Assembly: GCA_001772335.1 (NCBI GenBank)
Contig: METM01000029.1
Span: 8,401 to 72,400 of the forward strand
Length of the DNA stretch: 64,000 nt
Direction: 5' to 3'
Origin: a candidate division WOR-1 bacterium RIFCSPHIGHO2_01_FULL_53_15
GTDB taxonomy: Bacteria; Margulisbacteria; WOR-1; O2-12-FULL-45-9; XYB2-FULL-48-7
Shown here: one piece after another, positions 55,729 to 64,000 of the stretch
How positions within the stretch are numbered: the stretch's first letter is position 1
Layout: each line of letters opens with the position of its first letter
Notes under the pieces: model-generated
Databases searched by the model: none
What the model saw: the letters and a program-made list of their open reading frames with translations, nothing else
What the model was told of the DNA's origin: nothing
Position numbers and translations under genes: made by a program

Positions 55729-56385
55729 CTAATTATCGATCCAGCCCATCGGCAGAAAACCGACACGCATCATCGTTTCGTCGGTGATGCCTTTCGGCTC
55801 ACCCCTTAAATGTTTTTCGATATATTTTGAGAGGAGGTCAACTTCGAGATTGACCCGGTCGCCGACGCTCCGCTCGCCGAGATTCGTAGCTTTGACAGTT
55901 TGCGGGATGACGGCAATGGTGACCAGGCCGTCGCGGATGTCCGCCACGGTCAAGCTGAGCCCTTCAACGGCAATGGGACCTTTGATAACAATGTAACGGA
56001 GGAGTTCGCTGGGGACGGATAACTGCAGATCGACGCCCTCGACCCTGGCGATCTTGGCCCTGATCTCGCCGACGCCGTCAATGTGGCCGGTAACTAGATG
56101 GCCGCCCAGCCGGCCGGCGACCGGCAGCGCGCGTTCGAGATTGACTTTATCGCTGATGCGCAGGTCGCCGAGAGTGGTTTTTTTGAGGGTTTCAGCAGAG
56201 AGGTCGAATTCGGCAAAACCGCGGCGCTCGTGCGTCACTGTCAGGCAAGCGCCGTTGACGGCGATGCTGTCGCCGAACTTGAGGTCATCAAAGATTTTCG
56301 GCGCGGCGACCATCAGTTTGGCCGCCTGCTGGCCGCGGATGAGAGAGGCGACAACGCCGACCTGCTCAATTAATCCGGTGAACAT
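55729..56385 (-). CDS. ribE: riboflavin synthase (alpha chain)
   Basis: MFTGLIEQVG start, SIAVNGACLTV and a duplicated lumazine-binding repeat. Start corrected to 56385. Confidence 0.9.
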   Translation of the reverse strand: MFTGLIEQVGVVASLIRGQQAAKLMVAAPKIFDDLKFGDSIAVNGACLTVTHERRGFAEFDLSAETLKKTTLGDLRISDKVNLERALPVAGRLGGHLVTGHIDGVGEIRAKIARVEGVDLQLSVPSELLRYIVIKGPIAVEGLSLTVADIRDGLVTIAVIPQTVKATNLGERSVGDRVNLEVDLLSKYIEKHLRGEPKGITDETMMRVGFLPMGWIDN

Positions 56386-56417
56386 GATGAATATTTTATC
56401 ATAAGCGGGCGTTTTTC

Positions 56418-56822
56418 TCAAGGACTCTTGCGCAGGTAAGAGCCGAGGATGCCGTTGATGAATTTCGCCGCCTCGGGGCTGGAATATTTTTTCGCCAGCT
56501 CGACCGCTTCGTCGGCCACGACCGAGGCCGGCGTCTCTTTTGACCTAATCTCGTGGACGGCCAATCTCAGGATGCCGCGGTCGACTTTGCCGATCCGCTC
56601 AAGCGGCCAATCGATGGCGAATTCTTCAATGACCTTATCGCTGTCAGCCCGGTCCGCCCAGGCCTCGCGGGCCAGCTTTTCAGCAAAGCTTTTGGTCTCG
56701 CCAAACAGTTTCTCTTCGGCAGAGAAAATATTTTCGAGGGCTTCATCGATGCCGATATTCGCCGATTCGGCCTGGTAGAGCGCCTGCATGGCCAGGCGGC
56801 GGGCGGTGGTGCGTTTAGCCAT
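56418..56822 (-). CDS. nusB: transcription antitermination factor NusB
   Basis: 134 aa. RRLAMQALYQ, LRLAVHEI and a NusB-like C-terminus. Confidence 0.85.
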   Translation of the reverse strand: MAKRTTARRLAMQALYQAESANIGIDEALENIFSAEEKLFGETKSFAEKLAREAWADRADSDKVIEEFAIDWPLERIGKVDRGILRLAVHEIRSKETPASVVADEAVELAKKYSSPEAAKFINGILGSYLRKSP

Positions 56823-58172
56823 TTAGCCGGGGAAGCCGAAATACTCTTCGATGAACCTGGTGTTGACGCTGCCGCGGCGGAAGGCCTCGTTGCGCAGGAC
56901 TTTGAGATGAAAAGGGATCGTCGTGTGGATGCCGTCGATCACATATTCGTCGAGAGCCCGCTCCAGCCGCTGGATCGCTTCGGGCCGGTCCTTGCCCCAG
57001 GCAATCAGCTTGGCGATGAGCGAATCATAATGCGGCTGGATCATGTAGCCGGAAAAGGCGTGGCTGTCGACGCGGATGCCGGGGCCGCCGGGCGCGTGGT
57101 AGCCCTTGATCAAGCCCGGCGAAGGCATGAAGTTGCGTTCGTGGTCCTCGGCGTTGATCCGGCACTCGATGGCGTGGCCCTGGTACTTGACGTCGCCCTG
57201 GCGGATGTGGAGCTTTTCACCGGCCGCGATCAGTATTTGTTCTTTGATGATGTCGATATTGGTGATCATTTCGGTGACCGGGTGTTCGACCTGCACGCGG
57301 GTGTTCATTTCCATGAAATAGAAATGTCCGTGTTTGTCAAAGAGGAATTCGATGGTGCCAGCGCTGAAATAATTGACTGCTTTGGCCGCGCGGACCGCCG
57401 ATTCGCCTAACTTTCTCCTGGTCTTCTCATCAACCGCCGGCGAGAGCGATTCTTCGACTAATTTCTGATGTCTTCTTTGGATCGAACAGTCCCGCTCGCC
57501 TAAATAAATGGTATTGCCGTGTTTGTCGCCCAGGAGCTGGACTTCGATGTGGCGCGGATCTTCAATGAACTTTTCGACATAGATCTCCGGATTGCCGAAA
57601 GCGGCGCCGGCCTCGGCCCTGGCTGTGCGCATCAGGTGTACGAACTCTTCCGGCTGCGCGGCGACCCGCATGCCCCTGCCCCCACCGCCAGCCGTCGCCT
57701 TGATGATGACCGGATAGCCAATCTTATCGGCTATCTTTTTGGCTTCATTCTCATCCGAGATTGTCCCTGCCGAGCCCGGCACCGTCGGCACGCCGGCTTT
57801 GGCCGCCGTCTTGCGCGCCGTCGCCTTGTCGCCCATCCGGTTCATCGCGTCGACCGGCGGACCGATGAACGTGATTTTGTTGGCTTCGCAGATCTCGGCG
57901 AATTTTGAATTTTCAGCCAGGAAACCGTAGCCGGGATGTATTGCGTCGGCGCCGGAGACCTCGGCCACGCTGATGATGCCGGGGATGTTGAGATAACTTT
58001 TGTTGGGAGCGGCGGGACCGATGCAGAAAGATTCGTCGGCGATCTTGACATGGAGCGCGTCCTGGTCGGCCTCGGAATAGACCGCGACCGTGCGGATGCC
58101 CAGTTCTTTGGCGGCGCGGATGACCCGCACCGCGATTTCGCCGCGATTGGCTATTAAGATCTTTTTAAACAC
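56823..58172 (-). CDS. accC: acetyl-CoA carboxylase biotin carboxylase subunit
   Basis: 449 aa. MFKKILIANRGEIAVRVIRA, GGGGRGMR and EMNTRVQVEHPVTE motifs. Confidence 0.95.
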   Translation of the reverse strand: MFKKILIANRGEIAVRVIRAAKELGIRTVAVYSEADQDALHVKIADESFCIGPAAPNKSYLNIPGIISVAEVSGADAIHPGYGFLAENSKFAEICEANKITFIGPPVDAMNRMGDKATARKTAAKAGVPTVPGSAGTISDENEAKKIADKIGYPVIIKATAGGGGRGMRVAAQPEEFVHLMRTARAEAGAAFGNPEIYVEKFIEDPRHIEVQLLGDKHGNTIYLGERDCSIQRRHQKLVEESLSPAVDEKTRRKLGESAVRAAKAVNYFSAGTIEFLFDKHGHFYFMEMNTRVQVEHPVTEMITNIDIIKEQILIAAGEKLHIRQGDVKYQGHAIECRINAEDHERNFMPSPGLIKGYHAPGGPGIRVDSHAFSGYMIQPHYDSLIAKLIAWGKDRPEAIQRLERALDEYVIDGIHTTIPFHLKVLRNEAFRRGSVNTRFIEEYFGFPG

Positions 58173-58220
58173 GGAGTTTTGATTTTAGCATGAGGTCCGG
58201 CCCGATTGCAAATCAGGGCC

Positions 58221-59480
58221 CTAAAAGAAGATCAGGTAAAGCATTAAAAAGGAAATAAGGGTGAAACTGCCGATCGTCAGCCAGGCGACCACATTTTCCC
58301 AAGGGCTGTTGACGTTCGTCCCCATCGTTTTCTTATCGTTGATCAGCTTGAGCATGACGAAAAATATGAACGGCAGGACCATGGTGTTGAGCGCCTGCGA
58401 GGCGGTCAGGATAAAGATCATGGGGAGGTTCGGAATCAGGACCAGCAGCGTGCAGGAAAAAACGCAAAAGCCGATGATCGAATAGAACAGCGGCGCCTGT
58501 TTGAAAGAGGCGTTAACCTTGCGCTCGGTCCCCAGCACTTCCGAGATCGCGTAAGCGGTGCCCAGCGAGATGACGCAGACTCCCAGCAAAGAAGCGTTCA
58601 AAAGTCCCCAGGCGAATAAGTGCTTGGCAAATTCGCCGAGCAAGGGGCCCAGCGCCTGGGCCGCGTCGATCGCGTTCTCGATCCTGATCCCTTTGACAAA
58701 GAGTGTCGCCGCGCAGGAAATGATGATGAAGTACGCGACAAAATCGGTCCAGAACGCGCCGAACGCGACATCAAGGCGCGCGCTCCTGATGTTTTTCTTG
58801 CCCACCCCTTTGTCGACGAAATACGACTGGACGAAGAACTGCCCCCAGACCGTCAGGGTCGTGCCGATCAGGGCAGTGGCGGTAAAGATAAATTCCCGGT
58901 TCATGGGGAGCGTGGGGACAAAGCTGCCGTGCAGCATGGCGGGAATATCCGGCCGGGCGATGAACCCGTTTATAATGTAGCCGAAGAATAAAATGCAGGA
59001 CGTGAGAAAAATATTCTGGACAAAATTGAAACTGCCGCGCAGGATGACGGTCCAGACAATGACGGCAAAGACCGGCACAAAGATCAGGCGCGGGATGCGA
59101 TAGATGTCAGCGACCAAAGCGATACCGGCGACATCGGCCAGGATATTCGAATAGTTGGCGATAAAGACCAGCCCGATCAGCAGGATGGAAAACCGCAGGC
59201 CGAACTTTTCCCTGATCAGGTCGCCCAATCCTTTGCCGGTCACCACCCCCAGGCGCATCCCCATCTCCTGCGTCACGTAGAGCATAAAGGTGATGAGGAT
59301 CAGGATCCAGAGCATCTGGTAGCCGAAATGCGCGCCAGCCACCGAATAAGTCGCCACGCCGCCCGCGTCATTGTCGGCGGTGCCGGTGATGATGCCGGGC
59401 CCCACGACCGAGAAAAAGATGACGGCGCGCAGCATCCAGTAATTGAAGTCGCGGCCGGCGAACCATTTTTTTAACGCCAT
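58221..59480 (-). CDS. NRAMP-related (SLC11-like) transporter with non-canonical metal-site residues
   Basis: 419-aa polytopic ORF. The TM1 region GPGIITGTADNDAGGVATYSVAG replaces the canonical DPGN with DAGG. The TM6 region IGTTLTVWGQ lacks the canonical MPHN Met/His. Confidence 0.75.
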   Translation of the reverse strand: MALKKWFAGRDFNYWMLRAVIFFSVVGPGIITGTADNDAGGVATYSVAGAHFGYQMLWILILITFMLYVTQEMGMRLGVVTGKGLGDLIREKFGLRFSILLIGLVFIANYSNILADVAGIALVADIYRIPRLIFVPVFAVIVWTVILRGSFNFVQNIFLTSCILFFGYIINGFIARPDIPAMLHGSFVPTLPMNREFIFTATALIGTTLTVWGQFFVQSYFVDKGVGKKNIRSARLDVAFGAFWTDFVAYFIIISCAATLFVKGIRIENAIDAAQALGPLLGEFAKHLFAWGLLNASLLGVCVISLGTAYAISEVLGTERKVNASFKQAPLFYSIIGFCVFSCTLLVLIPNLPMIFILTASQALNTMVLPFIFFVMLKLINDKKTMGTNVNSPWENVVAWLTIGSFTLISFLMLYLIFF

Positions 59481-59482
59481 AT

Positions 59483-60745
59483 TTATCCTAACATCTGCCT
59501 TTTTCGTTTGGAGGTCGGCGGCAGGATCAGGTCCATCACGTCGTCAACGGTAATGATGCCCAGTATCTTTTGCTCATGGTCGACCACCGGCACGGCCAAT
59601 AAATTATATTTTGAGATGACGTCGGCCACTTCCTTCTGGTTCATTTCGGGGCTGACGGTGATAAAATCCCTGAGCATGATCTCGGAGATCGGTTTGTCCG
59701 GCGGCATAATGATCATTTTTCTCATGGAGAGGATGCCGACCAGGCGCCCGGATTCGTCAACCACGTATAAATAATAGATCGTCTCCGCTTCCGGCGCCGT
59801 CTCCCGCAGATAATTGATCACCTGCTCGACGGTCATGTTCTGCTGGAGCGCGATAAATTCCGTGGTCATCAAGCCGCCCGCCGTTTCGTCGCGGTGCTTA
59901 AGAAGCTTCCTAACCTCAACCGATCTGCGCGGCCGCATCAGGCGCAGCAGCTCCTCGGCCTTTTCGACCGGCACGTCGCCGATGATGTCCGCCGCTTCGT
60001 CGATCGGCATCTTCTCTAAGACGCCCAGCGCCTTCTTGGTATCGAGCGTCGAAATAAGCACGGCTCCGATCATCGGCTCAAGTTCGTGGAGCGCCTCGGC
60101 CGCCGTCTTTTCGGACAAGGCGGAGAAGATGGCGGTCTTTTGTTCGGCCTGCACCTGAGAGATGATCTGCGCGACGTCGGCCGGGTGAAGGTTGGTGATC
60201 GATTTGGTCGGGATCGCGATCTTGCCGCCGGAGAGGTCCTGCACGTGATCCCAGCCGATCAATTGTTCGGGGATTGTTCTCCTGAATAATCTAAAAAAAC
60301 CTGCGACAAAACTCTCTAACCCCAAACGCCTGAGCATGCCGCTTAAACCGACATCAGCCGCGATCAGGCGCACAGCCTGATCGACTTTGGCCAATTTTAG
60401 ATCGTTGACGCGGATGACGCGCGCCCCGTCGAGATCGACGACCTGCTGGTCCATGACGTCGCGGGAAAGCAGTACCTCACCCTCGCGCAGCGAGGTCAGC
60501 GGCACGCGGTCTTTGGTTGTGCGGGTCGAGACGAACTGCCGGCCGATCAGGTCGATCTCGCCGATCAGGAGGACCTTGTGCTCCTTTTTCTCGTCGCCGG
60601 TCGTGATCAGAAGACCGGTCACCCTGGGGAAGGTCTCGCCTAAAGTAATGATGATATCTTTAACGCGGCCGATATTTTCCTGCACCCGGTCGACAACCGG
60701 ATCGCCGATCAGCTCGGAGGCGAACATTTCAGAAAAGAGGACCAT
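59483..60745 (-). CDS. soluble PRC-barrel + MgtE N-domain + tandem CBS protein (no transmembrane domain)
   Basis: 420 aa. MgtE_N-like HPADVAQIISQV...LEKMPIDEAADIIGDVPVEKAEELLRLM, then two CBS modules. It ends without the MgtE TM module and lies 2 nt upstream of the NRAMP-related gene. Confidence 0.75.
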   Translation of the reverse strand: MVLFSEMFASELIGDPVVDRVQENIGRVKDIIITLGETFPRVTGLLITTGDEKKEHKVLLIGEIDLIGRQFVSTRTTKDRVPLTSLREGEVLLSRDVMDQQVVDLDGARVIRVNDLKLAKVDQAVRLIAADVGLSGMLRRLGLESFVAGFFRLFRRTIPEQLIGWDHVQDLSGGKIAIPTKSITNLHPADVAQIISQVQAEQKTAIFSALSEKTAAEALHELEPMIGAVLISTLDTKKALGVLEKMPIDEAADIIGDVPVEKAEELLRLMRPRRSVEVRKLLKHRDETAGGLMTTEFIALQQNMTVEQVINYLRETAPEAETIYYLYVVDESGRLVGILSMRKMIIMPPDKPISEIMLRDFITVSPEMNQKEVADVISKYNLLAVPVVDHEQKILGIITVDDVMDLILPPTSKRKRQMLG

Positions 60746-60769
60746 GATAAAGTTATTCTAACCCGATAA

Positions 60770-60790
60770 TTTGCGGCTGGCAACCGCAAA
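60770..60790 (-). terminator. weak hairpin between dprA and the MgtE_N/CBS gene
   Basis: TTTGCGG-ctggcaa-CCGCAAA: 7-bp stem with only a short U-rich tail on the minus strand. Confidence 0.25.
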
Positions 60791-60791
60791 A

Positions 60792-61901
60792 TCAGGCAGT
60801 CGTGTAATATTTGCCTGGCAGCTGGCGGACCGCTTTCTTGATCTCCAGCATCATTAAGAGCGAAGATGCCTGGTGGACCGGCAGGCCGGCCTCAGCGGCA
60901 ACACTGTCCAAATGTTTCGATTCGTCGGTCAATGCATCATAGATCTTCGCTTCTTCCGGCGTCAGGTTCGCCGGTCTGGTTTTTGGCGTTTGTGACTTGT
61001 TAGTTGTTTTGAAGTTTGATGTTTGAAGTTGGATGTTTAATTCCTCGAGAACGTCTTCAACCGTTTCGACAAGCTTCGCTCCTTGCTTGATCAGCCAGTG
61101 CGGCCCTTTTGATTGCTCGAGGCCCACGTTGCCCGGCACGGCAAAAACTTCCCGCCCCTGCTCCAGCGCTGCCTTGGCTGTGATCATCGCCCCGCTGTCG
61201 TAATGGCCTTCAACGACGATGACACCGAGAGAAAGCCCTGATATTATCCTGTTCCGCCGGGGGAAATTCCCTTTTTCTCCCCGCGCACCCATGGGAAATT
61301 CAGAGACCAGCGCGCCGCGGCTCTCGATCTCGCGGGACATCTCTTTATTATGCGGCGGATAAATGACATCCACCCCGCAGCCAAAGACCGCGATCGTTCG
61401 TCCATTCGCTTCGAGTGCGCCTTGATGGGCCGCCGTATCAATACCCGAGGCCAGACCCGAGACGATCGTCATGCCCAAAGCCGCCAGTTCTCCCGCGAAC
61501 TTCTTGGCCGTTTCCAGGCCGTAACGGGAAGCTCGCCTTGTGCCAACAATGGCTAACGACCTGCCGTCCGAAGGCAGAAGATCGCCTTTAACATAAAGCA
61601 CGGGCGGCGGATCATAAATATTTTTTAGGTTTTTGGGATAATTTTTGTCGGCCAGCGTGAGAATTGAGACCCTTTGCTTTTCGACCTCAGCCAGTTCGGC
61701 GGCAGGATCGAGCTGACCACGGCTTTGGATAAAGGCGGCAGCCGCCGTTCTGTTTATGCCTTCGACCGCGAAAATATCTTTTTCATCCGCTCGCCAAACC
61801 GCTTCAATTGATTCGAACCTGCCCCAGAGTTTATTAATTGTGACGGCGCCAAGGCCGGGGATCTTGTTTATCGCCAGCCAGTATTTCAGATCTTCATTCA
61901 T
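60792..61901 (-). CDS. dprA: DNA-processing protein DprA (Smf)
   Basis: NKIPGLGAVTINKL (SAM/HhH-like), the Rossmann core IVSGLASGIDTAAH...GVIVVEG, and a C-terminal winged helix. Start at MNEDLKY (61901). Confidence 0.9.
   Translation of the reverse strand: MNEDLKYWLAINKIPGLGAVTINKLWGRFESIEAVWRADEKDIFAVEGINRTAAAAFIQSRGQLDPAAELAEVEKQRVSILTLADKNYPKNLKNIYDPPPVLYVKGDLLPSDGRSLAIVGTRRASRYGLETAKKFAGELAALGMTIVSGLASGIDTAAHQGALEANGRTIAVFGCGVDVIYPPHNKEMSREIESRGALVSEFPMGARGEKGNFPRRNRIISGLSLGVIVVEGHYDSGAMITAKAALEQGREVFAVPGNVGLEQSKGPHWLIKQGAKLVETVEDVLEELNIQLQTSNFKTTNKSQTPKTRPANLTPEEAKIYDALTDESKHLDSVAAEAGLPVHQASSLLMMLEIKKAVRQLPGKYYTTA
60975..61037. repeat. heptamer array, TGAAGTT family (in the dprA linker)
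   Basis: ...GTTGTTT TGAAGTT TGATGTT TGAAGTT GGATGTT. A 23-nt block (ttgttttgaagtttgatgtttga) is identical to 51076-51098. It encodes LQTSNFKTTNKSQTPKTRP. Confidence 0.8.
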
Positions 61902-62442
61902 GCAGCGCCGATTTGAAAACCGTCTCCTGCTCCGCCTCGGCGGCCGGCAGAGGCGGCAGTGAGTCAACGTTCTCGATGCCGAAGTGACGGAGGAAGTTTT
62001 CGCTCGTCGCGTAAAGATAAGGCCGGCCGACCGTTTCGCTGCGCCCCGCTTCGCGCGCCAGTTTCTTGGCGACTAAACTCTCGATCACCCAGCCGGAATC
62101 AACGCCGCGCAGGCGCTCGATCTCCAGGCGCGTGACCGGCTGTTTGTAAGCTATTATGGCTAAGGTTTCAAGCGCCTGCGGCGAGAGCCGCGTCTCTTCT
62201 TTCGGATGAAGGATCTTCTCGACATAGTCGACATTGCCGGGGTTCGTCCCCATCAGATAGCCGCCGGCAACCTTGACCACCGTGATCCCCTTGTTTTGAG
62301 ATTCCGCCGCGAGCTCTTCCATCACCGGCAAGAGGACCTCGTTGGATAATCCGGCGACTTCACCCAATTCATCGATTGACAGCGGCTTGCGCGCGACAAA
62401 TAAGATCGACTCCAGAATGCTTTTAACTAGCGCCGTTTCCAT
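61894..62442 (-). CDS. scpB: segregation and condensation protein B
   Basis: 182 aa. ILESILFVARKPLSIDEL, LETLAIIAYKQPVTRLEIERLRGV and RPYLYATS motifs. Confidence 0.9.
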   Translation of the reverse strand: METALVKSILESILFVARKPLSIDELGEVAGLSNEVLLPVMEELAAESQNKGITVVKVAGGYLMGTNPGNVDYVEKILHPKEETRLSPQALETLAIIAYKQPVTRLEIERLRGVDSGWVIESLVAKKLAREAGRSETVGRPYLYATSENFLRHFGIENVDSLPPLPAAEAEQETVFKSALHE

Positions 62443-63166
62443 TAGCCAAAACCCCCGTTCCGAAGATGAGTATCGAGCCGAAGCGCCGCCCCTGGCGGAT
62501 ATTGATGCAGTTCTGCTTGGCCAGCTCGAGAATGGCCAGAAACGTCACGACGACCTCGAGGCGCGTCCGGCGCAGGAAAAGGTCCTCAAAAGGCAGGCCG
62601 TCGCCCCGGCCGGCGATGAGGCGCTCGATCTCGACGATGCGATCCTCAAGAGTGATCTCCTCGGCCTTGATGGGGACGATCTTTTCCCGCTCGGCGGCTT
62701 CGTGATAGACCTTCTGGAAAGCTGTGACAAGATCCCTCAAAGAAACATCTTTTAATTCGATCTCGCCTTCCACCTTTTCGCCTTCATGGCGGCCGTAGAT
62801 GCGGTCGAATATTTCCTTGCGCTGGCGCAGGTCCTGCGCGACTTTTTTATAGACCTGGTATTCCTGGATATGGGCCACCAGCGATTCTTCGATCGCGGAC
62901 TCCTCTGCCTGCCGGACGATCTCTGCCCTGGCCGGCAGCAGCCCCTTTGATTTAAGCTCGATCAAGCAGGCGGCCATAAAGATAAAATCCGAGGCCGACA
63001 GAAGCTCGGGCTTTTCCGCCCGCCAGTAGGCGAAATAAGAAGCGGTGATCTGCGCGAGAGAAACGCGGTGGATATCGATCTGTCCGTCATCGATCGCTTT
63101 GAGCAAAATGTCGAACGGCCCCTCAAAGACATCGGTCTTGACCTGGTAAGCCGTTTGTACGCTCAT
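62423..63166 (-). CDS. scpA: segregation and condensation protein A (kleisin)
   Basis: 247 aa. FEGPFDILLKAID start and a C-terminal winged helix VVVTFLAILELAK. Confidence 0.9.
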   Translation of the reverse strand: MSVQTAYQVKTDVFEGPFDILLKAIDDGQIDIHRVSLAQITASYFAYWRAEKPELLSASDFIFMAACLIELKSKGLLPARAEIVRQAEESAIEESLVAHIQEYQVYKKVAQDLRQRKEIFDRIYGRHEGEKVEGEIELKDVSLRDLVTAFQKVYHEAAEREKIVPIKAEEITLEDRIVEIERLIAGRGDGLPFEDLFLRRTRLEVVVTFLAILELAKQNCINIRQGRRFGSILIFGTGVLANGNGAS

Positions 63167-64000
63167 GCTAAACCTATCGCTTTTTTCGCTTGCGTCAAAG
63201 TCGCCGAGGCGACGGCGCGCGCCCGCTCCGCTCCGTTTTTCAATATATTATCGAGCAGTTTAGGCTCCTGCTCAAGCTCCCTGCCAGCCGCGTGGATCGG
63301 GGCCAGATATTCGATCAGGACCTGGGCCAGTTCTTTTTTGCAATCAACGCAGCCGCGCGACGCCTCACGGCATTCTTTCGCCGCTTTTTCCCTGCGGTCT
63401 CGCGCGAAGATCTTATAGTATTGATAGACCGGGCAGACATCCGGATGTCCGATATCTTCACGCTTAATGCGCTCGGGATCGGTCACCATGATGCCGACTT
63501 TTTTGCGGATCGCATCCGGCGTGTCCGAGATAGCGATCGTATTTCTGTATGATTTGCTCATCTTGCGGCCGTCGGTGCCGGGCAGGGCCGGGAATCGCGT
63601 CAGCGCCGCCTGCGGCTCTGGAAATATCTCTTTGTAAAGATAGTTGAAGCGGCGGGCGATCTCCCTTGTCAATTCAAGGTGGGGCAGTTGGTCCTCCCCC
63701 ACCGGCACCCTGCTCGCCTTGTAGATCAGGATGTCGGCCGCCTGGAGGACGGGATAGCCGAGAAAACCATAGGTGCCGAGATCTCTTTCTTTGAGCTCTT
63801 CGATCTTGCTTTTATAGGTGGGCACCCGCTCCAGCCAGGCCAGCGGCGTCAGCATGGAAAGCAGAAGATGGAGCTCGGCGTGCTCGGGCACGTCCGACTG
63901 CCTGAACAACACCGCTTTTTCCGGAGCGACGCCGGCCGAAAGCAGGTCGATCGCCGCCTGCCTGATGTCGTCCGCTAAATTTTTCGTGTCGGCGTAAGAG
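63163..64000 (-). CDS. trpS: tryptophan--tRNA ligase, C-terminal portion (5' end outside window)
   Basis: GYPVLQAADILIYKA, VPVGEDQLPHLELTREIARRFN and KMSKS motifs. The frame stays open to the window edge (..LADDIRQAAIDLLSAGVAPEKAVLFRQSDVPEH). Confidence 0.9.
   Translation of the reverse strand, partial: SYADTKNLADDIRQAAIDLLSAGVAPEKAVLFRQSDVPEHAELHLLLSMLTPLAWLERVPTYKSKIEELKERDLGTYGFLGYPVLQAADILIYKASRVPVGEDQLPHLELTREIARRFNYLYKEIFPEPQAALTRFPALPGTDGRKMSKSYRNTIAISDTPDAIRKKVGIMVTDPERIKREDIGHPDVCPVYQYYKIFARDRREKAAKECREASRGCVDCKKELAQVLIEYLAPIHAAGRELEQEPKLLDNILKNGAERARAVASATLTQAKKAIGLA

Follow-up and report, generated by a model that had tools for sequence, protein, structure and literature searches.

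The DNA analysed here, called the window throughout, is a 64-kb stretch of contig METM01000029.1 from candidate division WOR-1 bacterium RIFCSPHIGHO2_01_FULL_53_15, a Saganbacterium, and all positions are given in the coordinates of this stretch. The window holds a two-gene unit in which the gene for a magnesium-type relative of the NRAMP transporters (NRAMP-related magnesium transporter, NRMT) lies directly behind a gene for the sensor half of MgtE, without its pore. The two open reading frames (ORFs), like all the features of the window that are described below, are on the minus strand. The upstream gene (59483-60745) encodes a soluble protein of 420 residues, referred to here as the partner, and the downstream gene (58221-59480) encodes an NRMT-type SLC11 transporter of 419 residues. 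The identity of the two proteins, a carrier of the NRMT type and an MgtE sensor module that lacks the pore, is established with near certainty.

The junction between the two genes reads GGA TAA AT ATG. The stop codon of the partner, TAA, is at 59483-59485 and the ATG of the transporter is at 59480, leaving a spacer of two nucleotides (nt), in agreement with an earlier description of the locus made from its letters alone (the sequence-only reading), which had placed the partner gene immediately upstream at this spacing. The transporter ATG is preceded, at a distance of 5 nt, by the Shine-Dalgarno-like sequence AGGA. The database gene call starts the transporter 15 codons further in. Since homologues of 419 residues cover these first 15 residues, at 85-90% identity, the long form of the transporter and the 2-nt spacing are taken as correct.

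The transporter and its metal site

The transporter matches the Pfam family Nramp (PF01566) over its full length (E 3.1e-83). Its score against the NCBIfam MntH model is 113.9 bits, where the cut-off is 430, and the cut-off of the NCBIfam Nramp model is likewise missed. Its best relative among the solved structures in the Protein Data Bank (PDB) is EleNRMT, the Mg2+ transporter of Eggerthella lenta (7qia, E 3.2e-85); the canonical Nramps match at 1e-25 to 1e-15. In a four-way alignment of the transporter with EleNRMT, DraNramp and 10ky, the transporter is 39% identical to EleNRMT and 24-26% identical to DraNramp and 10ky.

On transmembrane helix 1 (TM1), the metal-site motif is D38-A-G-G41 (59358-59369), in place of the canonical D-P-G-N. 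The TM1 Asp is kept as D38, and G41 stands at the position of the canonical Asn, which gives the D-x-G-G pattern. On TM6, the canonical motif G-A-x-V-M-P-H-x is occupied by G206-T-T-L-T-V-W-G213 (58842-58865). T207 is at the position of the canonical Ala, T210 at that of the Met, which is absent, and W212 at that of the first proton-path His. At the position aligned with the second canonical proton-path His, the transporter again has no His. DAGG on TM1 and TLTVWG on TM6, with the soft-metal Met missing, are the replacements of DPGN and MPHN that the sequence-only reading had pointed out, and the canonical DPGN and MPH residues do not reappear when the sequences are properly aligned.

EleNRMT (PDB 7QIA, 7QIC, 7QJI and 7QJJ) has the same residues as the transporter at D38, G41, T207, W212, Q362 and N365 (D55, G58, T224, W229, Q379 and N382 in EleNRMT). 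It differs in having Ala227 where the transporter has Thr210, Pro228 where the transporter has the adjacent Val, and Glu133 where the transporter has Asp116. Canonical NRAMP/MntH proteins (DraNramp, ScaDMT and EcoDMT) belong to the same Pfam family, have the LeuT-type fold and share the TM1 Asp and the TM10 Gln with the transporter, but their Asn, their Met and both of their proton-path His residues are replaced in it. The Thr at the Met position departs from the published NRMT consensus, which has Ala, and is common to all but one of the loci with a soluble partner that are described below. This subfamily, with its soluble partners and Thr-type TM6, may have an ion selectivity other than that of the Ala-type subfamily to which EleNRMT belongs.

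According to work on its structure and transport (Ramanadane et al. 2022, PMC8806188), EleNRMT carries Mg2+ and Mn2+, although not Ca2+, without H+ coupling, and the Mg2+ that it binds appears to keep most of its hydration. The attribution of the NRMTs to Eggerthella in the sequence-only reading is right for the structure (Ramanadane 2022), but the first description was of the Clostridium acetobutylicum protein (Shin 2014).

The partner, an MgtE-derived sensor module

The partner has Pfam matches to PRC (residues 6-57), to MgtE_N (residues 186-286) and to two CBS domains. The TIGR00400 mgtE model is matched only at its positions 24-251 of 450, and the pore domain PF01769 is found neither in the partner nor elsewhere in the genome. 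The composition given by the sequence-only reading, a PRC barrel followed by an MgtE N-domain and two CBS domains without a pore, is thereby confirmed. The chain starts with a β-rich module (residues 1-175; 60221-60745), in which the PRC barrel is followed by a second barrel-like half. The MgtE_N domain (residues 186-286; 59888-60190) carries E217, D249 and D253, the codons of which were checked, and the CBS pair (residues 288-408; 59522-59884) carries N381, D402 and D405. The partner ends 12 residues past CBS2 with a short basic tail, PPTSKRKRQMLG (59486-59521), which stands where MgtE has its acidic plug helix (E258/D259) and replaces both that helix and the five pore helices.

The best solved relative of the partner is the cytosolic domain of T. 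thermophilus MgtE (TtMgtE; 2yvy, E 2.3e-47). An AlphaFold2 (AF2) model of the partner, built with 64 orthologues, has a pLDDT of 87.4; its top Foldseek matches are MgtE cytosolic domains (2zy9 and 2yvy), and it superposes on the Mg2+-bound domain in 2yvy with a TMt of 0.81 and a root-mean-square deviation of 2.3 Å over 225 columns. The partner shares the N domain, the CBS pair and the ligands of Mg4, Mg6 and Mg7 with the TtMgtE cytosolic domain (2YVY, 2YVX and 2ZY9), but it has no plug helix and no pore, and it has the PRC module of 175 residues in addition.

The Mg2+ sites of TtMgtE, mutation of which prevents Mg2+-dependent closure (Maruyama et al. 2018, PMC5882242), were mapped onto 67 partner sequences from about eight phyla. 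The Mg4 ligands D91 and D247 correspond to D249 and D402, each kept in 66 of the 67, and the Mg6 ligand D95 corresponds to D253, kept in all 67. E59 of Mg7 corresponds to E217, a position that is acidic in 57/67. At Mg5, the TtMgtE ligand D226 is N381 in the window partner (Asp in 31 and Asn in 22 of the 67) and D250 is D405 (Asp in 45, Glu in 13). The plug ligands of Mg2 and Mg3, E258 and D259, are lost in the soluble partners. The ligands that clamp the N domain to the CBS domains are under purifying selection, and their conservation fits a role of the partner as an Mg2+ sensor.

The ATP site, as described for TtMgtE (Tomita et al. 2017, PMC5529423), is kept in part. Y325 and R342 correspond to Tyr170 and Arg187, but the equivalent of Phe227, which stacks on the adenine, is L382 in the window partner and Leu in 60 of the 67 sequences, and Asn203 is not kept. 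Since the stacking Phe is essential, sensing of ATP in the manner of TtMgtE was rejected as a function of the partner.

The AF2 model of residues 1-180 (pLDDT 87.5, pTM 0.82) shows residues 1-175 to be a confident β-rich module. This module contains the most conserved motif of the family, made up of Q101, D104, G107, R112-V-N-D115, R139 and W165, and it is a candidate docking module. In Foldseek, its nearest relatives are CdpB1/CdpB2 (8qzo, E 1e-5), PRC-barrel proteins of archaeal cell division, followed by other PRC barrels, among them reaction-centre H subunits and RimM. The likeness to these PRC-barrel proteins is one of fold only, with 13-15% identity and TM values of 0.5-0.65, and it implies no common function.

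Conservation of the pair across bacteria

A pattern scan with one genome per species gave 322 relatives, from which 80 loci were kept. The pair that the sequence-only reading had picked out in a single genome proves to be conserved in many phyla: of the 78 loci with sufficient flanking sequence, 74 have a co-oriented gene for a PRC-bearing partner upstream of the transporter. The gap between the two genes is mostly between -4 and +22 nt, and the same order and coupling are found from Saganbacteria to groups of the Candidate Phyla Radiation (CPR), Chloroflexota, Actinomycetota and Bacillota. In three genomes the genes are not adjacent and the partner is elsewhere in the genome, once split in two. 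The distance matrices of partner and transporter are correlated with a Mantel r of 0.93; none of 999 permutations reached this value, the highest being 0.25.

The partners fall into classes according to their C-terminal ends. Soluble partners occur at 32 loci, in Saganbacteria/Margulisiibacteriota, CPR groups and Desulfitobacterium. Partners with one terminal membrane helix occur at five loci, all in Eggerthellaceae (L052, L077, L078, L081 and L082), so that the Eggerthellaceae differ in this respect from the window, where the partner is soluble. Partners with about five helices occur at 31 loci. Those of Chloroflexota (L022 and L025) match the MgtE pore family with 74 bits; those of Actinomycetota and Eubacteriales (L027, L029, L048 and others) match it with 20-22 bits, below the cut-off, or not at all. 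Not one of the 31 membrane-helix partners has the pore Asp, D432.

Placed side by side, the classes make up a decay series, from a recognisable pore domain through a degenerate five-helix domain and a single terminal helix to a soluble protein, with the pore Asp lost throughout. That the ancestor possessed a pore is suggested by the homology of the membrane domains to PF01769. A direction of pore loss was considered and set aside, since the deep branches of the partner tree do not resolve it.

The TM6 class of the transporter tracks the class of the partner. Transporters with the motif GTT(I/V)APWM have membrane-bearing partners, and those with GTTxTxWG have soluble partners, with three exceptions (L022, L025 and L070). 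Since the partner tree needs only two or three changes of class, the pattern amounts to clade structure and is inseparable from shared ancestry, and co-adaptation of TM6 and partner class was set aside as a reading of it.

No fusion of partner and transporter (a Rosetta-stone protein) was found among the 120 closest proteins. At L040, L054, L058, L067 and L080, the transporter ORF is long and either extends into the partner gene or occurs together with a partner match that is fragmented; these ORFs are taken as artefacts of start-codon choice or assembly. At L089/L091 (G001:C4:52129-53395), a split or a frameshift divides the partner into a PRC part of 183 residues and an MgtE_N-CBS part of 256 residues, which resembles the arrangement in C. 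acetobutylicum. L064, one of the two transporter copies of that relative, is broken into several frames.

Metal transport genes in the genome and the phylum

The assembly has 1.56 Mb and is 85% complete. The window transporter is its only Nramp-family gene, and the genome has no MgtE pore, no CorA, no canonical MntH and no binding protein of the ZnuA/TroA type. It also holds a P-type ATPase that scores below the MgtA cut-off, a CNNM/CorB-type protein and a ZIP transporter. The absence of any other Mg2+ importer from this one genome was considered as an argument, and is weakened by the state of the assembly and by the presence of CorA in a genome of the same genus.

The phylum survey covered 146 genomes, in which the class of the window comprises families f1-f13. 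NRMT is present in 62 of the 64 genomes of this class and in 6 of the 81 in the rest of the phylum, and the MgtE pore domain is present in none of the 64 and in 58 of the 81. Across the phylum, MgtE and the NRMT pair almost exclude one another, and only one genome (G063) has both NRMT and an MgtE pore. CorA is found in 22 of the 64 genomes of the class, that of the same genus included. Full-length PRC-bearing partners occur only in NRMT-bearing genomes of the phylum; the other genomes match only residues ~185-410 of the partner, inside frames of 455-500 residues that are canonical MgtE. When coordinates were compared by hand in the 62 NRMT-bearing genomes of the class, partner and transporter were adjacent in 49 and unlinked in 10, and no partner was detected in 3.

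In 24 class genomes with a completeness of 90% or more, the pair is present and both CorA and the MgtE pore are missing. Because Mg2+ is essential, these near-complete genomes are, of the indirect arguments for a supply of Mg2+ by the pair, the strongest.

A divergent form of the pair was also seen in the survey, with an NRMT of 32-35% identity and a PRC-bearing partner of 26-30% identity. Here the order is reversed, with the transporter first and a few hundred bases between the genes (G063:C40, G069:C72, G070:C102, G071:C88, G074:C48 and G091:C1).

Regulatory and flanking sequences

No Rfam family, the M-box included, was found at E<=1 in the region 56000-64000, and no M-box was found in six close relatives. 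In Desulfitobacterium (L037), where the transporter has the Thr-type TM6 and the partner is soluble, the partner gene does have an M-box ahead of it (151 bits), and so does the partner gene of an actinobacterial locus (L029).

Between the partner gene and the dprA-like gene upstream of it there are 46 nt, in which a promoter-like site and a short hairpin are the only features; a small upstream reading frame or a leader would not fit into this spacer. The promoter-like site, TTGCCA-17-TAGAAT (60755-60783; 10/12 in a consensus scan), ends 9 nt upstream of the partner ATG and is not followed by a Shine-Dalgarno sequence. A -10-like TA(G/A)AAT, again with no Shine-Dalgarno motif, is also found 8-10 nt before the partner ATG in the relatives L003, L006, L010, L012 and L014, despite different upstream genes. 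As far as a consensus match can tell, the operon may start leaderless or nearly so.

At the other end of the operon, the sequence behind the transporter gene shows no terminator-like site. Between the transporter stop codon and accC, the sequence TTGCAA-18-TAAAAT (58182-58211) resembles a promoter and includes the TG of an extended -10, which suggests separate transcription of accC.

Relation to earlier work

The pairing has already been published, together with the regulatory hypothesis, and the Saganbacterial pair is a member of that known system. Shin et al. (2014, PLoS Genet, PMC4072509) named NrmT after M-box riboswitches had been seen ahead of its C. acetobutylicum homologues, and reported Mg2+ rescue by NrmT in B. 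subtilis. Beside most nrmT genes they found an "MgtE-like fragment", for which they proposed a role in feedback regulation, with metal chaperone activity as the alternative. In A. capsulatum, co-expression of ACP2976/ACP2977 gave no extra Mg2+ rescue, and the transporter fully rescued an Mn2+ defect and rescued the Mg2+ defect weakly (PMC4072509).

In the operons of that study (Ca_c0685 in C. acetobutylicum, ACP2976/ACP2977 in A. capsulatum), nrmT is directly downstream of a gene for a homologue of the MgtE cytosolic domain, as it is here. The window differs in having no M-box, in having an unsplit partner (it is split in C. acetobutylicum) and in having a Saganbacterium as host. The PRC-barrel module and the membrane-bearing partners with a dead pore are absent from the account in PMC4072509. 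In the literature collection that was searched, no paper unites MgtE, the PRC barrel and Nramp.

Proposed mechanism

Among the Mg2+ importers of bacteria, NRMTs form a fourth class, which, unlike CorA and MgtE, lacks a built-in cytosolic sensor. The reading that we prefer, with a probability of about 0.55 for the whole statement, is that the pair consists of an uncoupled importer of Mg2+, probably also of Mn2+, and a detached Mg2+ sensor in the cytosol that turns the importer off. The transporter would import hydrated Mg2+, and probably Mn2+, down the membrane potential and uncoupled from protons. Rising cytosolic Mg2+ would bridge the N and CBS domains of the partner through D249/D402, D253 and E217 and so compact it. 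The compact partner would then dock on the transporter from the cytoplasmic side, with the PRC module as the probable contact, and block uptake. A potential-driven uniporter would thereby gain the negative feedback that is built into CorA and MgtE. Such feedback is to be expected because an uncoupled divalent uniporter without it would overload the cell.

The evidence for uncoupled Mg2+ transport by the window transporter is indirect and consists of the M-box at an operon of the same type and the phyletic replacement of MgtE. The sequence-only reading had suggested a two-component Mg2+ uptake system, gated or regulated by an MgtE-like sensor; the two identities, the conserved pairing and the clamp residues lend support to this, and we infer the gating, as we do the substrate, the physical contact and the sign of regulation.

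Several points weigh against the proposed mechanism. In the only published test the partner made no difference, and the homologue tested, that of A. capsulatum, acted as an Mn2+ transporter with weak Mg2+ rescue (PMC4072509). The null result of co-expression also counts in favour of the mechanism, as it is the outcome expected of an inhibitor in a rescue assay. The presumed selectivity of the transporter is extrapolated from EleNRMT, from which it differs at the site itself, with Thr210 for Ala and, beside it, Val for Pro. With Asn at Mg5 and without the plug ligands of Mg2 and Mg3, the affinity of the partner for Mg2+ may differ from that of MgtE. The two genes are unlinked in about 10 of the 62 class genomes, the Mantel correlation is expected also from shared species history, and the absence of CorA here may be an assembly gap.

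A more far-reaching form of this mechanism is held only tentatively, at somewhat less than even odds. It states that the partner is an obligatory trans-acting Mg2+ gate, that it is the sensor half of MgtE, detached after decay of the pore and re-used on an unrelated transporter fold, and that the pair has replaced MgtE as the main entry for Mg2+ in Saganbacteria.

Alternative explanations

The alternative that survives best, although it is unlikely, is that the transporter is mainly an importer of Mn2+, or of a broader range of divalent ions, and that the partner tunes it to the Mg2+ status or to a metal ratio. The A. capsulatum result speaks for it, since that NrmT, which like the present one has a partner gene and no M-box, fully rescued the Mn2+ defect and the Mg2+ defect only weakly (PMC4072509). 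EleNRMT, too, carries Mn2+ (PMC8806188), the M-box is missing in the window and in the six close relatives, and the genome has neither a canonical MntH nor a ZnuA/TroA-type binding protein. Against this explanation stand the near exclusion of MgtE and NRMT within the phylum and the 24 near-complete genomes without another recognised Mg2+ importer, as does the M-box that precedes a soluble partner and a Thr-type transporter in Desulfitobacterium. The ligands of the metal site are all hard oxygen donors, and the ZIP transporter of the genome is available for transition metals.

Less probable still is that the partner is not an inhibitor but an activator, an assembly factor or a metal chaperone at the cytoplasmic exit of the transporter. 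Metal chaperone activity was the alternative put forward by Shin et al. (PMC4072509), and the tight translational coupling of the two genes suggests that their products are made in stoichiometric amounts. However, NRMTs need no partner to transport, as seen in complementation of B. subtilis and with proteoliposomes (PMC4072509, PMC8806188), and co-expression brought no improvement (PMC4072509). In addition, the residues that are conserved in the partner are those that close MgtE, rather than those of a separate transfer site.

It is very improbable that the two genes are functionally independent, with the partner a stand-alone CBS protein that responds to Mg2+ or nucleotides and the adjacency a remnant of an old mgtE-nrmT arrangement, for although about 10 of the 62 class genomes hold the genes at separate loci, Saganbacteria, CPR groups, Chloroflexota, Actinomycetota and Bacillota share the same gene order and coupling, full-length PRC-bearing partners are confined to the NRMT genomes of the phylum, and the C-terminal class of the partner tracks the TM6 class of the transporter.

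Significance

If the proposed mechanism is correct, a regulatory domain has outlived its own channel and has been re-used on a different transporter fold. If the MgtE-derived protein is indeed the feedback gate, a question that has been open since 2014 would be settled. The Saganbacterial pair provides a compact test case for this question, with a soluble partner, no riboswitch layer and many relatives that have no other recognised Mg2+ importer. Its value also lies in the pattern of replacement between MgtE and NRMT within the phylum.

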